From Candidatus Binataceae bacterium (GTDB taxonomy: Bacteria; Desulfobacterota; Binatia; Binatales; Binataceae), in contig DASRHP010000009.1 in the NCBI GenBank assembly GCA_035650475.1, forward strand, positions 174,545-238,544: a DNA stretch of 64,000 nt, read 5' to 3'. The notes beneath the pieces were generated by a model that had not been told where the DNA came from, ran no database searches, and saw only the letters and a list, made by a program, of their open reading frames with translations. Within the stretch, counting starts at the first letter, position 1; the number at the start of each line of letters is the position of its first letter. The position numbers and the translations under genes are program-made. Positions 3,142-63,922 of the stretch are shown here, one piece after another.

Positions 3142-6033
3142 GTGGCCGAAACCGACTACAAAGCAACGCTCAAACTTCCCCGGACCGACTTCCCGATGAA
3201 GGCCAACTTGCCCAAGCGGGAGCCTGAGACGCTCAGGCGCTGGCAAGAGAGCAAGCTCTACGAGGAGCTGATGCGCGCGCGCAAGGACGCGCGGGTGTGG
3301 GTGCTCCACGACGGCCCGCCCTACGCCAACGGCCGCGTCCATATGGGCACCGCGCTCAACAAGGTGCTCAAAGACTTCGTTGTGCGCTCGCGTTCGATGA
3401 TGGGCCTGCGCACGCCGTTCGTGCCGGGATGGGACTGTCACGGGATGCCGATCGAGTTCAAGGTCTCGCGCGAGCTGGGCGAACGGGCGCGCTCAATGCC
3501 GAAGCTGGAGCTGCGCAGGCTGTGCCGCGCGGAGGCCGAGAAGTGGATCGACATCCAGCGGCGCGATTTCATGCGTCTGGGATGTATCGGCGACTGGTTC
3601 AATCCGTACATCACGATGGACCCCGCCTACGACGCGGCCGAGATTGGCGTCCTGCGCAACCTGGTCGCGCGTGGCTACGTCTATCGCGGCCTGCGCCCGG
3701 TGCTCTGGTGCTTCTACGACCGTACGGCGCTTGCCGAGGCCGAGGTCGAGTACCGCGAGCACGTCTCACCGTCGATCTACGTCGCCTTTGCCTTCAACGC
3801 GAACCTGCCCGACGCTGGCGCGCTCGCGGTCGACCGGGCCGAGGGCGCCGAGCTTGCGGCGGCGCTGACAGCGGGCAGGCTCTTCGCGGTGATTTGGACC
3901 ACCACGCCGTGGACGCTGCCGGCCAATCTCGGAATCAGTCTCAACCCGACTTTCGACTACGTCGCCCTGGTCGCGGGCGATCGCTACTACGTCGTCGCCG
4001 CGCGCCTGGCCGAGGCGGTCGAGCAGGCCTGCGGGTTGAAAGTGCAAAAGCGAATCGCGCTCAGCCGCGACGCGCTCAGGGCGCTCGACGGCCGCGACAT
4101 CTTCCGCCATCCGTTCCTCGCCCGCGACGTCAAGCTGATGTACGGCGACCACGTCACCGCCGACGCCGGCACCGGCCTGGTGCATACCGCGCCCGGCCAC
4201 GGTTACGAGGACTTCGTGGTCGGCGCGCAGTATGGGCTCAAGCCGTTTACCCCGGTCGATACCGCGGGCGCGTTCACCGCCGAGGGCGGCGAATGGGCCG
4301 GACGCAACGTCTTCGAGGCCAACCCGGCGATCGTCGCGCGGCTGCGCGAGCGCGGCGCGCTGCTCCAGGTCGAAAACTACTCGCACAGCTATCCACATTG
4401 CTGGCGCTGCAAGAATCCCCTGATCTTCCTCGCCGCCGAGCAATGGTTCATGCGGGTGGACCACGAGAAGCTGCGCGAGCGCGTGATCGCCGCGATCGAC
4501 AGCGTGCAGTGGATTCCCCCGTGGTCGCGCGACCGCATTCGCAACATGACCGAGACGCGCCCCGACTGGTGCCTGTCGCGCCAGCGGGCCTGGGGCGTGC
4601 CGATTCCTGCGCTCAGGTGTCGCGGATGCGGCCACGTCGGGCTGTACGACGAGGTGATGCGCGCGGCCGAGGAGCTCTTCGCGCGCGAAGGCTCCGACGC
4701 CTGGTTCGCGCGGCCGGCCGCCGATTTTATCCCGGCGGGCGTCAAGTGCGCTGAATGCGGGCGCGCGGAGTTCGATAAGGAAGACGACGTGCTCGACGTC
4801 TGGTTCGACTCGGGCGTTTCCCAGGCCGCCGTGCTGGGCAAGCGCGCCGAGCTCACCTGGCCCGCCGACGCCTACCTCGAAGCGGTCGAGCAGGCGCGCG
4901 GATGGTTCGGCTCGTCGCTCGCGTGCGCGGTCGCCGAGCGCGGCAGCGCGCCGTTTCGCGCCGTTATTAGCCACGGGCTTACGGTCGACGAGCAGGGGCG
5001 CAAGATGTCGAAGTCGCTGGGCAACGCCGAAGACGCCGCCGACGCGGTCAATCGGCTCGGCGCCGACGTGCTGCGCCTGGTGTACGCTTCGCTCGACTAC
5101 ACCGGCGAGGTCACGCTTGGCGAGACAATCTACGCGGCGATCTCGGAGTCGTACCGCAAGATCCGCAACACCTGCCGCTACATCCTTGGCAACCTCGCCG
5201 ATTTCGACCCCGCTCGCGACGCCCTGCCAACTGCGCGGATGGCCGAGTTTGACCGCTACATCCTGGCCCGCCTCGAGCGTCTGAAGGCTGAGGTGCGCCG
5301 CGCCTTCGAGGCCTACGACTTCCAGGCTGCCTATCACGCGATCATCAATTTCGTCGTCGTCGATCTGAGCTCGCTGTATATCGACGTCGCACGCGACCGG
5401 CTGTACTGCGCGGGAGCCGAGTCGCCCGCGCGCCGCTCGGTGCAGACCGCGCTCTGGACCGTGCTCGACACGCTGGTACGGATCCTCGCCCCGCTCATCC
5501 CGTTCACCGCCGAGGAGATCTACGCGCACATGCCCGGCGAGCGCGCCTCGAGCGTCCATTTGCTGACGCTTCATCCGGCGAATCCCGAATTCGCCGACGC
5601 CGCGCTCGAGGCGCGCTGGGAGCGCCTGCTCAAGGTGCGCACCGAGGTGCTCAAGCTGCTCGAAACGATGCGCCAGGAGGGAACGATCGGCGCCCCGCTG
5701 GAGGCGGCATTGCGAATCGGCGCGCTCGACGACGGCGCGCTGGCCGAGACGCTCGCGCGCAATCGAGAGGCGCTCAAGGAGCTGTTCATCGTTTCGGACG
5801 TTGCGATGCTTGACCGGCGCGAAGCGGAGGAGCTGCGCGGCCGCGCCGGCGGCGGCGACACGTTCAGCTTCGACGGCGCCTGGGGCCGCTTGTCGGCCGA
5901 CCCGCCGATGGTTTTCGTCGGGCGGCGCGCGCCTGGGAACAAGTGCCAGCGCTGCTGGATGTACTACGACGACGGCGCCGATCCCGAGCTGTGTCCGCGA
6001 TGCCGCACGGTGGTGCGGCGGCCGGCCGCGTGA
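3142..6033 (+). CDS. ileS: isoleucine--tRNA ligase
   Basis: 963 aa; HMGTALNK (HIGH-type) and KMSKS motifs; C-terminal zinc finger CQRCW...CPRCR. Confidence 0.95.
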   Translation: MAETDYKATLKLPRTDFPMKANLPKREPETLRRWQESKLYEELMRARKDARVWVLHDGPPYANGRVHMGTALNKVLKDFVVRSRSMMGLRTPFVPGWDCHGMPIEFKVSRELGERARSMPKLELRRLCRAEAEKWIDIQRRDFMRLGCIGDWFNPYITMDPAYDAAEIGVLRNLVARGYVYRGLRPVLWCFYDRTALAEAEVEYREHVSPSIYVAFAFNANLPDAGALAVDRAEGAELAAALTAGRLFAVIWTTTPWTLPANLGISLNPTFDYVALVAGDRYYVVAARLAEAVEQACGLKVQKRIALSRDALRALDGRDIFRHPFLARDVKLMYGDHVTADAGTGLVHTAPGHGYEDFVVGAQYGLKPFTPVDTAGAFTAEGGEWAGRNVFEANPAIVARLRERGALLQVENYSHSYPHCWRCKNPLIFLAAEQWFMRVDHEKLRERVIAAIDSVQWIPPWSRDRIRNMTETRPDWCLSRQRAWGVPIPALRCRGCGHVGLYDEVMRAAEELFAREGSDAWFARPAADFIPAGVKCAECGRAEFDKEDDVLDVWFDSGVSQAAVLGKRAELTWPADAYLEAVEQARGWFGSSLACAVAERGSAPFRAVISHGLTVDEQGRKMSKSLGNAEDAADAVNRLGADVLRLVYASLDYTGEVTLGETIYAAISESYRKIRNTCRYILGNLADFDPARDALPTARMAEFDRYILARLERLKAEVRRAFEAYDFQAAYHAIINFVVVDLSSLYIDVARDRLYCAGAESPARRSVQTALWTVLDTLVRILAPLIPFTAEEIYAHMPGERASSVHLLTLHPANPEFADAALEARWERLLKVRTEVLKLLETMRQEGTIGAPLEAALRIGALDDGALAETLARNREALKELFIVSDVAMLDRREAEELRGRAGGGDTFSFDGAWGRLSADPPMVFVGRRAPGNKCQRCWMYYDDGADPELCPRCRTVVRRPAA

Positions 6034-6047
6034 AGGCCGTCGCGCCG

Positions 6048-6569
6048 ATGGCGGCGCAGGCCGAAGCTCCCCAAGCGCAGCGCTGGAACCTGCGCCGGTT
6101 CGCCGCGATGGTGCTGGGAGTCGCACTGCCGGTCTTCGTGCTCGACCAACTGAGCAAGGTCCTCATCGAGCGCCATCTTCGCCCCTTCGAGCGGATCGAT
6201 CTGATCCCGCATCTGCTCGCGATAACCTACACGCAGAATCCGGGCGCGGCCTTCAGCCTGTTCGCCGGCATGCCGCCGGCCGTGCGTAATCTGGCGCTCG
6301 GCGGACTGGCGGCGGGCGCCGTCGCGGTCCTGGGCGTGCTGCTCGCGCGCGGCTCGCGTCCGACCCTCGTTTCGGTCGCTTTCGCGCTGATCATGGGCGG
6401 TGCCGCGGGCAACCTGGTCGATCGCGTCCTGCGCGGGCGCGTCGTGGACTTCATCTACGTCCACTATTACGCCTGGAGCTACCCGGTCTTTAATTTCGCC
6501 GACAGCGCGATCACGATCGGCGTCGCGGTAATCCTGATCCATTCGCTTTTCGCCCACGACGCCTCCTGA
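6048..6569 (+). CDS. lspA: lipoprotein signal peptidase (signal peptidase II)
   Basis: Immediately downstream of ileS (conserved ileS-lspA synteny); membrane protein with conserved NLVDR and FNFAD motifs. Confidence 0.85.
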   Translation: MAAQAEAPQAQRWNLRRFAAMVLGVALPVFVLDQLSKVLIERHLRPFERIDLIPHLLAITYTQNPGAAFSLFAGMPPAVRNLALGGLAAGAVAVLGVLLARGSRPTLVSVAFALIMGGAAGNLVDRVLRGRVVDFIYVHYYAWSYPVFNFADSAITIGVAVILIHSLFAHDAS

Positions 6570-7659: not shown

Positions 7660-7690
7660 GGCGGGCCGCCGGCCCGCCTCTTTTTTGCTT
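7660..7690 (+). terminator. rho-independent terminator after the PTE-family gene (A-tract upstream makes it potentially bidirectional)
   Basis: GGCGGGCC-GCC-GGCCCGCC 8-bp GC stem followed by TCTTTTTTGCTTTTG. Confidence 0.65.
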
Positions 7691-7734
7691 TTGTCGTCCC
7701 CCCCCTTTTGCCCGAAATCGCCGCTCCGACCCTC

Positions 7735-7980
7735 TTAGCTCTTCGACAACACCTGGCCGCCGGCTTCCATCTGCGCGCGCCAGCGGTCGATCGCCTCGAC
7801 GTTGAACCGCCAATCGCTGCCGACCCGGAACGCCGGCAGCTCGTTGCGCTTGAGCAACCGGTAAACCGTCGAAGGATGGACCCGCAGATAGGTGGAGACG
7901 TCCTGCACCGTCATCACGCGCGACTGAACGCTGTCGAAATCCATCAGCCCAACCCGCTCTTTCCCGTTATTGGTCATTTC
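7735..7980 (-). CDS. excisionase-family helix-turn-helix DNA-binding protein
   Basis: MTVQDVSTYLRVHPSTVYRLLKRNELPAFRVGSDWRF is a classic Xis/MerR-type HTH; RBS GGGGAGAGG precedes ATG at 7980. Confidence 0.75.
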   Translation of the reverse strand, partial: EMTNNGKERVGLMDFDSVQSRVMTVQDVSTYLRVHPSTVYRLLKRNELPAFRVGSDWRFNVEAIDRWRAQMEAGGQVLSKS

Positions 7981-17545: not shown

Positions 17546-18493
17546 TCAGGGTTTGATTACCACGAGCGCGCCCACGGGCAGAAGCGCTTCGAGTTCGTCG
17601 ATCGCGCCGTTATCGACCGAAATGCACCCGGTAGTCCAGTTGATGTTGCCCGAGTTGAGAATCGGGACGTCGGTGCCGTGGATGCCCACGGCGCCCCCTT
17701 CGGGCGTTGCGCGCCCGTGGCTCTTGGGCACTTGGCCCTCAAGCAGCATCTCGTGATAGACCGCGCGGTCGTAGTCGTTGGGGTAATCGATTTGCAGGAA
17801 ATAGCGCCATCGACGGTTGGGGCGCTTGCGAATTATCCGGTAAACGCCCTCGGGCGTGCGCCGGTCGCCCGACCATTCCTTGCCCCCCGCCTCCAGGCTG
17901 CGCCCGAACACCGCGTGATATTTCTTATAGAGGTGGCCCTCGAAATAGACCACCAACTCGTGGCGCGACTTATACGCCATCACCGCCCAGTTGCGGGGGT
18001 CGAGCACGACCGACTGATCCCTGGTGAGGCGCAGCGCCTCCTGCCCTGGTGTCGGCTGCTCAGCCGGGGGCGCTGCGGCCGAGCCATCGCTGGCGCCGGA
18101 GTGAGGAGGCGTGAGGCGGGTGGAGTCCTGAGTCGCGCCGCTCGAAGGAGAGCCGGGGGGAGAGAGGGCGGCGACCCGCGGGGCCGGGGCGCGCGCCGCA
18201 GACGATGTGGCCGGGGCCACCGAGACTGCCGCCGGCAGATTGGGAATCGTGTCCGCGCTTGGAGAAGGCGCCGGCTGCGCCGGCCTCAGCACGGTCCAGC
18301 TGCCGGGCTTCGGGACAGGCGCCGGGGGTTGCACTGTGGCAGCCGCGGCCGCGGACACCGGAGGCGTCATCGCGCCTGAAGCGACCGGCGCCGCGCTCGG
18401 CTGAGCGTCCATCGCCAAGGCGCCGGCCGAAAACGCCGAGCCGAGCATAACCACCCCTATCGCCGCCCCAACCAACCACCGCATCGGCTTCAT
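17546..18493 (-). CDS. L,D-transpeptidase (YkuD domain) with signal peptide and Ala/Pro-rich linker
   Basis: C-terminal HGTD...TTGCISV catalytic motif; ATG at MKPMRW is preceded by GGAGAAAAG. Confidence 0.8.
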   Translation of the reverse strand: MKPMRWLVGAAIGVVMLGSAFSAGALAMDAQPSAAPVASGAMTPPVSAAAAATVQPPAPVPKPGSWTVLRPAQPAPSPSADTIPNLPAAVSVAPATSSAARAPAPRVAALSPPGSPSSGATQDSTRLTPPHSGASDGSAAAPPAEQPTPGQEALRLTRDQSVVLDPRNWAVMAYKSRHELVVYFEGHLYKKYHAVFGRSLEAGGKEWSGDRRTPEGVYRIIRKRPNRRWRYFLQIDYPNDYDRAVYHEMLLEGQVPKSHGRATPEGGAVGIHGTDVPILNSGNINWTTGCISVDNGAIDELEALLPVGALVVIKP

Positions 18494-18630
18494 CGCTTTT
18501 CTCCGCAAGATCTTCATCCTTGCGCGCCATTAATTGTGGAAGAGCTTGGCGGACGGGTCAATTGCTACTAGCTTCGCCATATGGTGCGGCCTGGAGGGCT
18601 TTGGATAACTAGTTGGAATAGGAGCCGCCT

Positions 18631-21139: not shown

Positions 21140-21859
21140 ATGGCTCTGAGTAGTTATCGCGCGTCTGGGTTTTGGCTTGTGCTGCTGTTGTCGATAGCGG
21201 CGCTTGGGACGGACGTGATCCGCGCGCCGGCGGCCGCCGCCGACCAGCAGGTCTGCGACCCGGTGGCCGATTACTACCTCGGGATGGAGAATTACCCAGC
21301 CGCGATCCGGCGTCACCTTGTAGTCATCCGTGCTCATCCCGACAACGCGCTTGCCCATTACCATCTGGGCTTTGCGTATGGCTTAACCGGCCAGCACGCG
21401 CGTGAACTGAACGAGTATCGGCGGGCCGTCGCCCTTGGGTTCGGTGACTGGCAGCTTTTCCTCAACATGGGGCTGGCCTACGTCGAGGCCGGCCGGCTGA
21501 ACGAAGGCATCGAGGTGCTGCGGTTGGCGACACTGCTGGCGCCGTACCAGAGCGAAGCGCACTTCAACCTGGGGTTGGCCTACGAACGGCGCGGGATGCT
21601 GTCGGCGGCGGAGCAGGAGGTTCTGCTTGCGCTGCGGCTGAAGCCGGGCGACCTCGACACGCGCAACACGCTCGGCTTGGTTTATGCCGAGGAAGGCCGT
21701 TACGGGTTGGCGCGCACGGAGTGGGCGGAGTTGCTCGGCGCGGATCCGGAATATACGCCGGCCCGCGAAAATCTGGCGATCCTGAGGCGGGCGGAGCAGC
21801 ACGCGGGCGGCGAGGGCGCCGGCTCACATCCGGTGGCCATTTTCGCTCACAGGCGGTGA
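21140..21859 (+). CDS. tetratricopeptide-repeat protein with signal peptide
   Basis: MALSSYRASGFWLVLLLSIAALG signal peptide; repeated AxxxYxLGxAY TPR units. Confidence 0.7.
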   Translation: MALSSYRASGFWLVLLLSIAALGTDVIRAPAAAADQQVCDPVADYYLGMENYPAAIRRHLVVIRAHPDNALAHYHLGFAYGLTGQHARELNEYRRAVALGFGDWQLFLNMGLAYVEAGRLNEGIEVLRLATLLAPYQSEAHFNLGLAYERRGMLSAAEQEVLLALRLKPGDLDTRNTLGLVYAEEGRYGLARTEWAELLGADPEYTPARENLAILRRAEQHAGGEGAGSHPVAIFAHRR

Positions 21860-21875
21860 GGTTGAGGTGGTAACG

Positions 21876-23183
21876 ATGGTGGCGAGGCCTGTGGCAGAAG
21901 GGGTGCAAAGGCGGACGGATAACGCAGCGATTCGCGGGTGGACGGCAGCGACATCCTGCACAAAATTATTGGTCCTTGTCCTCGTCGCCGTGCTGATAGC
22001 CCCCGGCGCGGCGCGTGCGACCTCTCATCGAGCTCGTCACAGACGGCACGCTACCCGCCATCATCGCAGCCACTACAGCACGCACGGCGCTCCTTACCAT
22101 GCCCTGCTGCTGGAAGAGGCCGACACCGGCAAGATTCTCTACGACTACAATGGCGGCATCCAATGGCCGCCGGCGTCGATGGCCAAGATGATGCTGCTGT
22201 TGGTCGCCGAGGAGGCGATCCAGTCTGGCCGCGTTCATCTCAACGATCCGGTGACCATATCCGCCAACGCCGCGGTGACCGGCGGCTCGCGCCTTGGGCT
22301 GCTGCGCGCGGGCGAAGTCGTCCCGCTGGGCGAACTGATGAAGGCGGCGCTCATCCGCTCGGCCAACGACGCCGCCGTCGCGGTGGCCGAGAAGGTATGC
22401 GGTTCGACCGAGCGCTGCGTCGCGCTGATGAACGAGCAGGCCAAGGCGCTCGGCATGACCCACACCGTTTACCATACGGTCGAGGGGTTGCCGCCGCGCC
22501 CGCTGCACGACGTTGACACCACCAACGCCTATGACCTTGCGACCCTCGCCCGCGCGCTTATCCATCGCACCAACCTGCTCCAATGGTCGGGGATGGAGAC
22601 CGCGTCCTTCGAGGACGGCCTAGTGATGCTCCATAACACCAATCATCTGGTGGGCCATTTCGAGGGCTGCGACGGGCTGAAGACCGGTTTCACGATCAGG
22701 GCCGGCTTCAATCTGACGGCGACCGCCGAGCGCGGCAACATGCGGCTGATTGCCGTGGTGCTCGGCGCGCCCAACAACTCCGCGCGCTTTGCCCAGGCGG
22801 CGCGCCTGATGGAGTGGGGGTTCGACAACTTTGCGAAAGTCACGGTGCTCAAGCGGGGCGAGTTGCTGCCGGTGCAGGTGCGGGTTGGAACGGACGAGGT
22901 GATGCAGCCGGTGGCGCAAAACACGGTTACCGTGATCGTGCCGAAGAAGGATGCCGCCTCAATTAAAATCGACTATGCGGTGCCGGCCAGCCAGTACGGG
23001 CCGCTGGTCTCGGATCAGACCGTGGGCCATGTTATCGTGCGCGACGGCGGCGAGGTGCTGGCCGAATGCAACGCGGTGTGCCCGTTTCCGGTCGGACAGC
23101 GGCCGGCGGTGCTCAACGCGATGAACGGCTCCGACCTCAACGCCCACAGCGCAACCATGCAGGTAGAGGCGCCCGCAAGGTGA
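21876..23183 (+). CDS. D-alanyl-D-alanine carboxypeptidase (peptidase S11, PBP5/6 family)
   Basis: SMAKMM (SxxK), SAND (SxN) and KTGFT (KTG) motifs; GAGGTGG RBS before ATG 21876. Confidence 0.85.
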   Translation: MVARPVAEGVQRRTDNAAIRGWTAATSCTKLLVLVLVAVLIAPGAARATSHRARHRRHATRHHRSHYSTHGAPYHALLLEEADTGKILYDYNGGIQWPPASMAKMMLLLVAEEAIQSGRVHLNDPVTISANAAVTGGSRLGLLRAGEVVPLGELMKAALIRSANDAAVAVAEKVCGSTERCVALMNEQAKALGMTHTVYHTVEGLPPRPLHDVDTTNAYDLATLARALIHRTNLLQWSGMETASFEDGLVMLHNTNHLVGHFEGCDGLKTGFTIRAGFNLTATAERGNMRLIAVVLGAPNNSARFAQAARLMEWGFDNFAKVTVLKRGELLPVQVRVGTDEVMQPVAQNTVTVIVPKKDAASIKIDYAVPASQYGPLVSDQTVGHVIVRDGGEVLAECNAVCPFPVGQRPAVLNAMNGSDLNAHSATMQVEAPAR

Positions 23184-45621: not shown

Positions 45622-47289
45622 CTACAGCACGTTGACTGGCCGGTATTCGCCGAACACCCGCCGCATCGCGTCCGAGATCTCGCCCAGGGTCGCCCGCTTG
45701 CGCACCGCGTCGATAATCGGCGGCATCAGGTTGCTGCCGTCGCGCGCCGCCCTCTCGACCTTCCCGAGCGCCGCGCGTGCGGCTTCCGCGTCGCGCTCGG
45801 CACGCAGGCGAGCCAGGCGTTCGCGCTGACGCTCCTCGAGCTGCGGGTTGAGGCGGAGAATATCGGTCGGAGGTTCTTCCTCGGCGGTGAATTGGTTGAC
45901 GCCGACGATGATGCGCTGTTTGGTTTCGATTTCGCGCTGGTAGGCGTAGGCCGCCGACTGGATCTCGCGCTGCATGTAGCCGCGCTCGATCGCAGCCACC
46001 GCGCCGCCGAGGTCGTCGATACGGCCCAGGTATTCCGTAGCCTTGGTCTCGAGCTCGCGCGTGAGGGTCTCGAGGAAGTAGGAGCCGCCCAGCGGATCGA
46101 CCGTATCGGCGACGTCGGACTCGTGCGCGATGATCTGCTGGGTGCGCAGCGCGAGCAGGGCCGAGTTCTCAGTCGGCAATGCCAGCGCCTCGTCGCGCGA
46201 GTTGGTGTGGAGCGACTGCGCGCCGCCGAGGACCGCGGCCAGCGCCTGGAGCGTAACCCGCACCACGTTGTTGTCCACCTGCTGCGCCGTCAGCGTCGAG
46301 CCCGCGGTCTGCGCATGGAAGCGCATCATCATCGAGCGCTCGTCGGTGGCGCCGAAGCGCTCTTTCATGATCCGCGCCCACAGCCGGCGCGCTGCGCGGA
46401 ACTTGGCGATCTCCTCGAAGAAGCCGTTGTGGACGTTGAAGAAGAACGACAGCCGGCTGGCGAAGGCGTCCACCTTGAGCCCCGCCTTGATCGCCGCTTC
46501 GACGTAGGCGATGCCGTCGGCGAGGGTGAAGGCGAGCTCCTGGGCGGCGGTCGAGCCGGCCTCGCGGATGTGGTAGCCGGAGATCGAGATCGTGTTCCAG
46601 TTGGGGACTTCGCTGGTCGCGAACTCGAAGATGTCGGTGATAATCCGCATCGAGTCGCGCGGCGGATAGATGTAGGTCCCGCGCGCGACGTACTCCTTGA
46701 GCACGTCGTTCTGGATCGTGCCGTTGAGCTTGTCCCATCCCACCCCGCGCCGCTCGGCCACCGCCAGGTAGAGCGCAAGCAGGATCGCGGCGGTGGCGTT
46801 GATCGTCATCGAGGTCGAGATCTTTTCCAGCGGTAAGGCCTCGAGCAGGGTCTCCATGTCGTCGATCGAGCAGATCGACACGCCCACCCGCCCGACCTCG
46901 CCGCGGGCCAGCGGATGATCCGGGTCGCGGCCCATTTGGGTCGGCAGGTCGAAGGCGACCGACAGCCCGGTCTGCCCATGTTCGAAGAGATAGCGATAGC
47001 GGCGGTTGGACTCCTCCGCGGTGCCGAAGCCCGCGTACTGGCGCATCGTCCACAGCCGCCCGCGGTACATCGTCGGCTGCACGCCGCGGGTGAACGGATA
47101 CTCGCCGGCGAAGCCGAGGTCGCGCAGGTAGTCAAAATCGTCAAGATCGGTGGGGTCGTACTGGCGCTTGATCTCGATGCCCGAGGTGGTGGCGAACTTC
47201 GCGCGCCGCTCGCCGCCGCGCTTGAGCGCGGGCGCGACCTTGCGCTGCTCCCAGGCTTTGCGTGCGTCCTCGATTCCGCCGTTCGACAT
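45622..47289 (-). CDS. methylmalonyl-CoA mutase, large (catalytic) subunit without a fused B12-binding domain
   Basis: 555 aa; MCM N-terminal TIM-barrel signature (…[13 protein letters not shown]…). Confidence 0.9.
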
Positions 47290-47314
47290 AAGCGCCTTGG
47301 CCTCCGATCCGGCG

Positions 47315-47824
47315 CTACTCGATAATCGCCAGGATCTCGCCCTTCTCGACCGTCTGGCCCGCGGTCACCCGCACCTCTACCACCCGTCCGGCCTTGGGCG
47401 TCTTGATCTCGTTCTCCATCTTCATCGCTTCAACGGTCAAGACGCCCTCACCGACTTCGACCTGCTGGTCGGGTTTGACCAGCACGTTGACCACCCGCCC
47501 GGGCATCATCGCCTTGAGTTCGACACGGCCGCTGACCTGGCGGCCGAGACGCGCCTCCACCTGGCGTATCGCGCGCTGGCGCTCGTCAACCAGGGCGACG
47601 CGCCATGCGCCGGCGCGCGAGGCGACGATGAGCTCCTCGCCGTCAGGCGTGACGTCGAAATCGAAGGAGCGGTGGCCAATGAGGACTGAAAACGAACTTG
47701 CGCCGACGCGGCGCAGATCGACCTCGAAGCGCCGCTCGCCCATCCGGACCGCATAGGAATGGGCGCCGAGCTCTTCGAACTCGAAATCGTGCTCCGCACC
47801 CTGCATCGTCGCCAGGTATCGCAT
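47315..47824 (-). CDS. biotin carboxyl carrier protein (biotin/lipoyl attachment domain)
   Basis: EAMKMENEI biotinylation motif; 169 aa from ATG 47824. Confidence 0.8.
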
Positions 47825-59621: not shown

Positions 59622-60380
59622 ATGAGCACGTCCGCCAAAGTCGCGATCGTAACCGGCGCCGGCACCGGGATCGGTAAGGCCAGCGCGCTCGCCCTGATGC
59701 GCGAAGGATACGCGGTCGCGCTGGCCGGGCGCCGCAAGGAGCCGCTCGAGGCGACCGCCGAGCAGGCGAAGGCGATCGGGGCCTCCGCGCTGGTCGTTCC
59801 CGCCGACGTAAGCGATGCCGCCTCGGTCAAGGCGCTCTTCGCGGGCACGGTCGAGGCTTTTGGGCGCGTTGACCTGTTGTTCAACAACGCCGGCATCGGC
59901 GCGCCCGCGATTCCGCTCGAAGATCTGACCGTGGAGCAATGGAAAAAGGTCGTCGATATAAACCTGACCGGCGCGTTCCTGTGCACGCAGGAGGCGTTCC
60001 GCGTGATGAAAGGCCAGAATCCGCGTGGCGGACGGATCATCAACAACGGCTCGATCTCCGCTCACGCGCCGCGTCCGAACTCCGCCCCCTACACCGCGAC
60101 CAAGCATGCGATGACGGGGCTGACCAAATCGACCTCGCTCGATGGGCGCAAGTACAACATCGCCTGCGGCCAGATCGATATCGGCAACGCAGCGACCGAG
60201 ATGACGGCGCGGATGGCGCGCGGCGTGCCGCAGGCCAACGGCGCGATCGCGGCCGAGCCGACCTTCGCCGTCGAGCACGTCGCGCGCGCGGTGGTCTATA
60301 TGGCGAGCCTGCCGCTGGAGGCCAACGTGCAGTTCATCACTGTGATGGCGACCGCGATGCCCTTCATCGGCCGCGGCTGA
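59622..60380 (+). CDS. SDR-family oxidoreductase
   Basis: [14 protein letters not shown] Rossmann motif; NNAG; YxxxK (YTATK); GGAGG RBS. Confidence 0.88.
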
Positions 60381-60918
60381 GGTTTGCGTCGACGACCGCC
60401 TGACTTCCGTCCCCTTCCCTGAAGGAGGGTGCCGCGCGAGGGGTCAAGGCGTCTTCCGCGTAGGGGCGGTTCGCGAACGGTCCCTACGCAGAGATCACAG
60501 CGCTTGTGCGCGGCCCAATGCGCGAGGTGCGCTGGGCAGTCGCCGCACTTGCACCCTCCTCCGCTCGTGACGCGGGCAAGGGGTCAGAGCGGAGGCAACA
60601 CTCCTCAATAATTCGGGGGGCCGGGCGTTTGCCCGACCCCCCTACCGCCTCCACATCCGCAACCCCACACCACGCCTGAGCGGGGCCGCTCACCTCATCG
60701 CCATCCGCACCTCGTCACGCTCGCCCGCTAAACCAGACCCCGGAGGAGTCCACCGCCTCTCTCGCCGCCGCCAAGCGCCTCTCCCGGACGCGCCCGCCGA
60801 TCGCGCCGCTCCGCTAAGCGCGCCCAATCGCCTGTCCTGCCGTTCCCCCTCCTGCCAAGCTTTTCCGCCGCCAGCCCCCGCGCCCTTCACTCCCCCGGGG
60901 TCTTCCGACCTGCTCGGT

Positions 60919-63753
<2,835 letters not shown>

Positions 63754-63922
63754 CTCCTCCACCTCCCCGGCTGCCCTGCGCCTCGGCTGGAACGCAAATT
63801 ACTCCGGTTCGTGGTTGTGTCAAGGACCACACCCCAAGATATTGTATAGGATAACTTGTGGACAACCTATAGAAAGGGCTGTTAGTAAGTCTTCGTACTA
63901 ATTTCGCCTCTATAGGAATGCC

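Follow-up and report, generated by a model that had tools for sequence, protein, structure and literature searches.

The gap between the SDR gene and nrdJ in the window (the whole 64-kb stretch of DNA that was analysed) raises the question of why one strand should be so rich in C and so poor in G, and on which of the two strands the reason for this lies. The tract had been picked out in the initial annotation from a hand count (C ~48%, G ~21%) that proved slightly low for C, the exact composition of positions 60641-60900 on the + strand being A 13.1%, C 51.5%, G 21.5% and T 13.8%, against 33.6% for both C and G in the window as a whole. Calculation of GC skew across the window upheld the strand-specific excess of C over G, with the lowest value anywhere (-0.453 at 60637-60896) lying about 5.6 sd out in the distribution of all 260-nt windows (mean 0.001, sd 0.080). 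The runner-up among negative non-overlapping 260-nt windows reached -0.272 and the top positive one +0.284. A maximal-segment scan set the bounds of the tract at 60632-60896, within a gap of 538 nt. The genes either side of this gap are as first described and were confirmed by Pfam (Table 1), with independent gene calls on the source contig, a metagenome contig of 763.9 kb in ENA, finding no gene between them. The convergent SDR gene is the sole possible origin of + strand read-through into the tract, and on the nrdJ strand the tract is, as had also been stated, G-rich sequence in the nrdJ 3′ UTR.

Other stretches with unequal C and G occur in the window, all of them much weaker or shorter than that at 60641-60900. 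On the + strand a C/G ratio of at least 3 is found at ~7676-7753 and 18441-18533 and a G/C ratio of at least 3 at ~21851-21928, with further skewed 260-nt windows at 21689-21948 (+0.28) and 47267-47526 (-0.27). The SDR-proximal half of the gap itself holds an inverted repeat at 60455-60492, with 19-nt arms that are 84% complementary, a spacer of zero and no U tail on either strand.

The answer originally proposed was a Rho utilisation (rut) site, in which RNA read through from the SDR gene would be C-rich and weakly structured, allowing Rho to load and to stop antisense transcription before it reached nrdJ. In keeping with this the + strand has the composition of a rut site, that is, a C-rich and G-poor stretch of at least about 70-80 nt on the transcribed strand, with 78-nt windows reaching C/G ratios of up to 3.6 and the best of these combining many YC dinucleotides with little predicted structure (Table 1). 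In addition, a terminator scan of the + strand detected no intrinsic terminator that would serve the SDR gene. Comparison with related loci directs attention to the other strand. The tract is taken here, at a probability of roughly four in five, to be complementary to an RNA that is conserved, folded and rich in G and would form the 3′ end of the nrdJ transcript, a reading built on comparative analysis of sequences.

Table 1. Genes flanking the C-rich tract, the most rut-like segment of the + strand and the parts of the G-rich element as found in the window.
Feature	Position	Strand	Basis or detail
SDR gene	59622-60380	+	Pfam adh_short E 2e-53
Best rut-like 78-nt window	60636-60713	+	43 C, 12 G, 26 YC dinucleotides, MFE only -8.8 kcal/mol
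nrdJ, class II (B12-dependent) ribonucleotide reductase	60919-63753	-	Pfam Ribonuc_red_lgC E 4e-144, Ribonuc_red_2_N, TSCPD; gene call
nrdJ stop codon	60919-60921	-	
Whole element (putative nrdJ 3′ UTR; G-rich structured RNA, ~300 nt, ~50% G, 22% C)	60605-60918	-	nhmmer, 3′-domain covariance model, folding
P1 5′ arm (GACCCCGGGGGAGU)	60889-60902	-	Inverted repeat, 93% complementary; covariation
Variable G-rich interior, enclosed by P1	60750-60888	-	Contains GCGAUUGGG motif and GGAUG-like repeats
P1 3′ arm (ACUCCUCCGGGGUC)	60736-60749	-	Inverted repeat; covariation
Linker between P1 and P2	60693-60735	-	
P2 hairpin (UGAGCGG CC CCGCUCA)	60677-60692	-	Hairpin at same position in relatives
Near-invariant single-stranded G-rich block (GUGGUGUGGGGUUGCGGAUGUGGAGGCGG)	60645-60673	-	Pattern match; invariant alignment columns
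12-bp GC hairpin (GGGGGGUCGGGC AAAC GCCCGGCCCCCC)	60615-60642	-	Read from sequence; stem covaries
U-rich tail past hairpin (GAAUUAUUGA)	60605-60614	-	4 U in best 8-base window

Read on the nrdJ strand the element consists, in order, of a long-range helix (P1) closed around a variable interior, a second hairpin (P2), the near-invariant block, a GC hairpin and a U-rich tail. The block has the consensus GUGG..GGGG..GYGGAUGUGG..RCGG and holds most of the invariant columns of the alignment, with the spacing between conserved sub-blocks being 21, 22, 23 or 25 nt among members. The interior enclosed by P1 is 131 nt long in the window (after trimming of the arms) compared with 52-119 nt in relatives. 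Across members the element measures 200-300 nt with a G content of 37-50% and a C content of 18-24%. Six-frame translation found no open reading frame in the element, and the only internal tandem or direct repeats in the tract were short two-copy matches. A coding reading was considered and rejected, an AUG-led frame present in some relatives being broken by spacing differences of 1-4 nt and by loss of the AUG.

A comparison of NrdJ with one genome per GTDB species places the source of the DNA among the uncultured Binataceae (Candidatus Binatia), the best match having 85% identity. Homologues of the element were identified at 16 loci, 14 of them distinct, from Binataceae MAGs and metagenomes, with nhmmer and a covariance model covering the 3′ domain only in agreement. 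The copy in the window scored E 4.5e-26 over its full length by nhmmer and 72.8 bits by the 3′-domain model. At every one of the 16 loci nrdJ lies upstream of the element on the same strand, and neither method found a convincing copy outside these loci, including in the rest of the 64-kb window. In Binataceae relatives with NrdJ identities of 77-85% the 200-400 nt past nrdJ show a G-rich skew of +0.3 to +0.5 on the nrdJ strand, with comparable skew absent downstream of nrdJ in the more distant taxa compared. Alignments of the region downstream of nrdJ revealed blocks common to the relatives despite NrdJ identities of only ~80%. These comprise GGNCCCGGRGRA soon after the nrdJ stop codon with its partner UYCUCCGGGNCC located 60-150 nt further on, the block AUGUGG..GGGG..GYGGAUGUGG..RCGG, a GC hairpin often topped by GGGAGCAAUCCC, and a U-rich tail. 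A DNA pattern drawn from the invariant block has a single match in the window, where 0 are expected, and one in each relative, every member being matched. The same pattern was scanned against metagenomes without use of nrdJ, yielding at least seven true copies, in which the hairpin was also present, among the 120 matches listed; all seven follow an nrdJ gene on the same strand, and 113 of the 120 are chance G-rich sequence. Counting against the main reading is L001, the closest relative by NrdJ identity (85%), in which only the 3′ domain is found and the P1 consensus is absent.

More distant Binatia (L011 at ~6000-6090, L020, L021, L022 and L050) carry after nrdJ a (GGNGG)n run of milder G-richness with a GC hairpin behind it, an arrangement that may represent a diverged form of the element; among these five only L011 gives a match to the model, a weak one of 18.8 bits. 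Covariance-model matches in L061 and L011 were not counted as members, being weak and terminator-like.

Whether these loci share a folded RNA can be judged from the substitutions in the proposed helices. In an ungapped alignment of both arms of P1 the 11 core pairs are all standard, with none broken in 13 distinct sequences, and both sides have changed in 11 of 17 pairs. Covariation in P1 is 0.40, compared with 0.23±0.03 on shuffling (0 of 500 reaching the observed value) and 0.06-0.19 after displacement of the partner by 1-3 columns, statistics that are indicative and not formal proof given an alignment of only 13-14 related sequences. In the terminator stem RNAalifold applied to the full alignment identified compensatory changes in 7 of 11 pairs, and 13 of 14 members have a P2 hairpin between P1 and the block, its stem differing considerably in sequence among them. 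The invariant block is unpaired in a manual three-helix model, RNAalifold having placed weak, non-covarying G·U pairs inside it.

These helices also bear on the strand. Cells of the P1 core include 11 G·U pairs and no A·C, the 12-bp hairpin of the window contains one U·G pair that becomes an A·C mismatch if read on the + strand, and the U-rich tail lies 3′ of the hairpin on the nrdJ strand only. The minus-strand RNA has an MFE of -157.7 kcal/mol (z -3.1 against shuffles) and the plus-strand RNA one of -99.6 kcal/mol (z -0.3), a fold no better than that of shuffled sequence and, as such, a further point for a rut site. Taken together the G·U pairs, the U tail and the folding energy indicate that the functional strand is that of nrdJ, with a conserved structured RNA on this strand very probably being the cause of the C/G skew. 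Rut sites, in contrast, are not expected to carry conserved primary sequence, compensatory changes or G·U pairs that form on the other strand only, and the + strand, for all its weakly folded 78-nt windows, also forms a 28-nt GC hairpin, the tract as a whole containing the complements of both P1 and the 12-bp GC hairpin.

The hairpin and U-rich tail look like the intrinsic terminator of the nrdJ operon. For L008 and L005 the terminator scan made a call on the nrdJ strand at the hairpins homologous to that of the window, and the tails that follow the hairpin in relatives read GAAAUUUUUU or AAUUUUUUUC. Weighing against the main reading, the hairpin and tail of the window copy, with a 12-bp stem and 4 U in the best 8-base window, fall below the threshold of the scan.

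The position of the element relative to nrdJ is equally constant. In the window and about six further members of the 14 distinct (L001/L178, L002, L005, L008, L017, L175 and L199) the element or P1 starts 15-25 nt past the nrdJ stop codon, leaving no room for a promoter of its own, such that the element is most simply part of the nrdJ 3′ UTR, and from this layout we infer that it would be co-transcribed with nrdJ. In L006, L007, L009, L091, L135 and L112/L182 nrdJ is separated from the element by one or two small ORFs, and there too the element is the last feature ahead of the putative terminator. CxxC motifs are present in the inserted ORFs of L006, L007, L009, L135 and L112/L182 and absent from that of L091.

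The inserted CxxC ORFs (L007 3202-3678 and 3696-4052, L009 6164-6451, L006 5821-6078, and others in L003, L112/L182 and L135) encode 85-158 aa with no Pfam match, and none occurs in the window. They form two sub-families, ..PFEMSFKCxxC..FWFEN.. and ..AWIECxxC..FEL.., with 56-59% identity within each and weak similarity between them (E 1e-4 to 1e-5).

Beyond the terminator the gene changes from genome to genome, with the same type recurring only as the Gp49-like gene of L017 and L005. Of the six members with a downstream gene identified by Pfam, four have a convergent neighbour, as the rut reading would favour: the SDR gene in the window, an α/β hydrolase in L001 and the Gp49-like genes of L017 and L005. 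The other two have a co-directional neighbour, a DNA methylase in L006 and a globin in L007. It follows from the co-directional neighbours, together with the changing identity of the neighbour, that the element belongs to the nrdJ unit and is independent of convergent transcription. The claim that the tract exists to block convergent antisense transcription fails on this point, the element having been kept beside the L006 methylase and the L007 globin and staying with nrdJ as its neighbour changes.

What stands of the rut interpretation is the composition of the + strand, the weakly folded 78-nt windows and the lack of an intrinsic terminator for the SDR gene; the skew on which it was founded is very probably explained by the conserved RNA of the nrdJ strand. 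As an account of the tract, a rut site is considered quite improbable. It is possible that the rut-likeness of the + strand is a by-product, at most used opportunistically at the window locus, where judging by sequence Rho may possibly play a part. More generally, where strand composition is anomalous between convergent genes, the cause can be a functional RNA encoded on the opposite strand, and a Rho loading site need not be invoked.

The convergent genes of L017 (6310-6699, - strand) and L005 (4634-5257, - strand) are Gp49-like (DUF891, toxin-type), and the DNA methylase of L006 is fused to Mrr-like/NA-iREase1 restriction-endonuclease-like domains, a pattern suggestive of preferential insertion of mobile or defence genes directly beyond the terminator of the element.

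The G-richness of the nrdJ strand invites a different explanation, in which the transcript or the non-template DNA forms a G-quadruplex or an RNA:DNA hybrid (R-loop) that pauses the polymerase and aids termination past nrdJ. Quadruplex-like structure on this strand had been part of the original claim, and a predictor supports it weakly: averaged over 250 nt, G4Hunter gives its most extreme score of the whole window here (-0.89 on the scale of the + strand, sd 0.16), with a local maximum of 2.04 at 60872-60896 and 21 overlapping motif starts of the two-tetrad type, and yet the canonical (G3+N1-7)x4 motif is absent from the window RNA, as it is from 8 of 10 relatives examined. The top-scoring G runs, moreover, belong to the covarying helix P1, and the sequence-specific conservation of the element exceeds anything that G-richness requires, making a quadruplex or R-loop very unlikely as the basis of the tract.

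That the composition arose by chance or is the remnant of decayed coding sequence is effectively refuted by the comparative data, as far as sequences can decide. The skew is a 5.6-sd outlier, the element is conserved at 14 distinct loci with changes that preserve structure, no frame is open and the small ORFs lie outside P1 where they are present. A weak tblastn match of the L007 ORF at 3696-4052 to the tract (E 0.036 in a 538-nt database, 32% identity) is the one observation pointing to a coding remnant, and this was judged to be compositional.

No known family accounts for the RNA. None of the 4227 models of Rfam 15 matches the element, with no match at gathering score in the whole window, and scans by E-value gave no meaningful match in 60300-61000 at E<=10 and no match at all to the element at five homologous loci. 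Matches to mir-149 and IRES_Bip and a 26-nt terminator-like match to BjrC68, all in 60300-61000, were dismissed as noise. A search of the literature on Binatia noncoding RNA and on nrdJ-associated structured RNA or terminators found no description of the element, which would as such be a previously undescribed RNA and a candidate new RNA family confined to uncultured Binataceae. G-rich, quadruplex-prone sequences are reportedly depleted from bacterial transcripts, against which a conserved RNA of 40-50% G is surprising. The Binatia are abundant in soil and are not known to have been brought into culture, and no RNA regulators described for them were found in the literature; if confirmed, the element would add to the lineage a conserved, gene-linked non-coding RNA. 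That the element is tied so strictly to nrdJ suggests that deoxyribonucleotide synthesis is under a further, post-transcriptional level of control that has gone unrecognised, and interest would be higher should a trans-acting or sensing role prove true.

How might such an RNA act? It would be made whenever nrdJ is transcribed and could act through the invariant single-stranded block beside the terminator, whether as a 3′-UTR-derived trans-acting RNA or decoy pairing with C-rich partners or as a docking site for a protein, with the outcome that some other process would be coupled to the expression of ribonucleotide reductase. The G-rich, C-poor composition might also keep Rho off the untranslated stretch. 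A regulatory RNA derived from the 3′ UTR is favoured by the combination of a conserved and covarying P1, a variable interior, a P2 conserved in structure only and ~25 invariant unpaired nt upstream of the terminator. In CpxQ, SdhX and DapZ the seed block of a 3′-UTR-derived sRNA lies directly upstream of the terminator. The element likewise is contiguous and co-oriented with the CDS and would have its putative terminator in common with it, and the nucleotides at 60645-60673, unpaired in the manual three-helix model, would provide a conserved single-stranded seed. Against action in trans, the Shine-Dalgarno sequence is the commonest target of sRNAs and a G-rich seed is unable to pair with it. 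Complements to 9-mers of the invariant block elsewhere in the window were only scattered matches inside coding regions, and at nine loci the duplex energies for pairing of the block with the nrdJ 5′ region were within the background of the locus. A specific trans-acting or decoy mechanism, argued by analogy with such sRNAs, is put forward tentatively and is rated less likely than not.

Slightly more doubtful is the broader suggestion of a new class of G-rich RNA carried on nrdJ mRNA that is itself the regulator, either as a released 3′-UTR RNA or decoy, its GUGG/GGAUGUGG block catching C-rich RNA or a dedicated protein, or as a 3′ switch responsive to a ligand or protein, which in each case would link expression of the B12-dependent RNR to other steps of dNTP supply or replication in Binataceae.

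The same features could be read in a purely cis-acting sense, with the G-rich UTR and hairpin forming a 3′ end module that shields nrdJ mRNA from 3′ exonucleases and Rho and sets its half-life with no partner in trans. That the element always closes the nrdJ unit on its 3′ side, including where small ORFs have been inserted, is in keeping with this, as are the strong hairpin and a G-rich, C-poor make-up that is the opposite of a rut site. A stabiliser, however, needs neither ~25 invariant single-stranded nucleotides nor a conserved long-range helix, a hairpin alone normally being enough. This explanation is simpler than a role in trans but leaves the invariant block unexplained, and is thought rather unlikely.

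The repeated GGAUG(N)GG motifs raise the further idea of a decoy or sponge for a GGA-recognising protein, CsrA/RsmA-like or other, as in CsrB and RsmZ. Over 10 divergent members GGAUG occurs 29 times compared with 8.5 expected (z 7.5, a 3.4-fold enrichment) and GGAUGNGG 19 times compared with 1.7 expected. The CsrA SELEX consensus, RUACARGGAUGU, also has GGAUGU as its 3′ half. Plain GGA, on the other hand, is barely enriched (z 2.2), the motif is found in 1-5 copies per RNA with only two GGAUG in the window copy, and about a third of the GGAUG count comes from a single conserved site, such that a protein sponge is judged improbable.

Regulation of nrdJ from its 5′ side yielded no known element: even with 3 mismatches allowed, the NrdR-box consensus ACACWATATATWGTGT had no match anywhere in the window, and neither a cobalamin riboswitch nor any other Rfam family was found upstream of nrdJ. 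The upstream region at 63763-63900 (minus strand) has a GC content falling to ~50% and contains CTATAG/CTATAC repeats.

Set beside known systems, the tract resembles characterised rut sites (lambda tR1 rutA/rutB, trp t′) in having a C-rich, G-poor + strand of more than 80 nt with locally little predicted structure and in lying downstream of a stop codon within a convergent gene pair. Rut sites are, however, defined by composition and function, whereas what is conserved in this case (G·U pairs, U tail, covariation and linkage to nrdJ) belongs to the other strand. The orphan RNA motifs of the kind reported by Weinberg et al. (2010, 2017) and held in Rfam are similar in combining a conserved intergenic block and covarying helices with a restricted taxonomic distribution and a constant association with one gene, although most such motifs lie 5′ of their gene, the element lying 3′ of its own and having no match in Rfam 15. 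With CsrB, RsmY and RsmZ the element shares a non-coding, purine-rich sequence with repeated GGA-containing motifs (GGAUG) and a putative Rho-independent terminator at its end, differing in the small number of motif copies, in apparently being carried on nrdJ mRNA instead of expressed from a gene of its own and in the lack of similarity in sequence or in Rfam. It is the 3′-UTR-derived sRNAs (CpxQ, SdhX, DapZ and NarS, with s-SodF in Streptomyces) that, reasoning by analogy, the element would appear most like in its working, starting past the stop codon on the same strand, ending at the hairpin and U tail of the operon and having its most conserved nucleotides in a single-stranded block directly upstream of the terminator. 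It departs from these sRNAs in its far greater length (200-300 nt), its extreme G content (37-50%) and a long-range helix around a variable domain, in a conserved block that is G-rich and not pyrimidine-rich and is unable to target Shine-Dalgarno sequences, and in an occurrence known from uncultured Binataceae alone.
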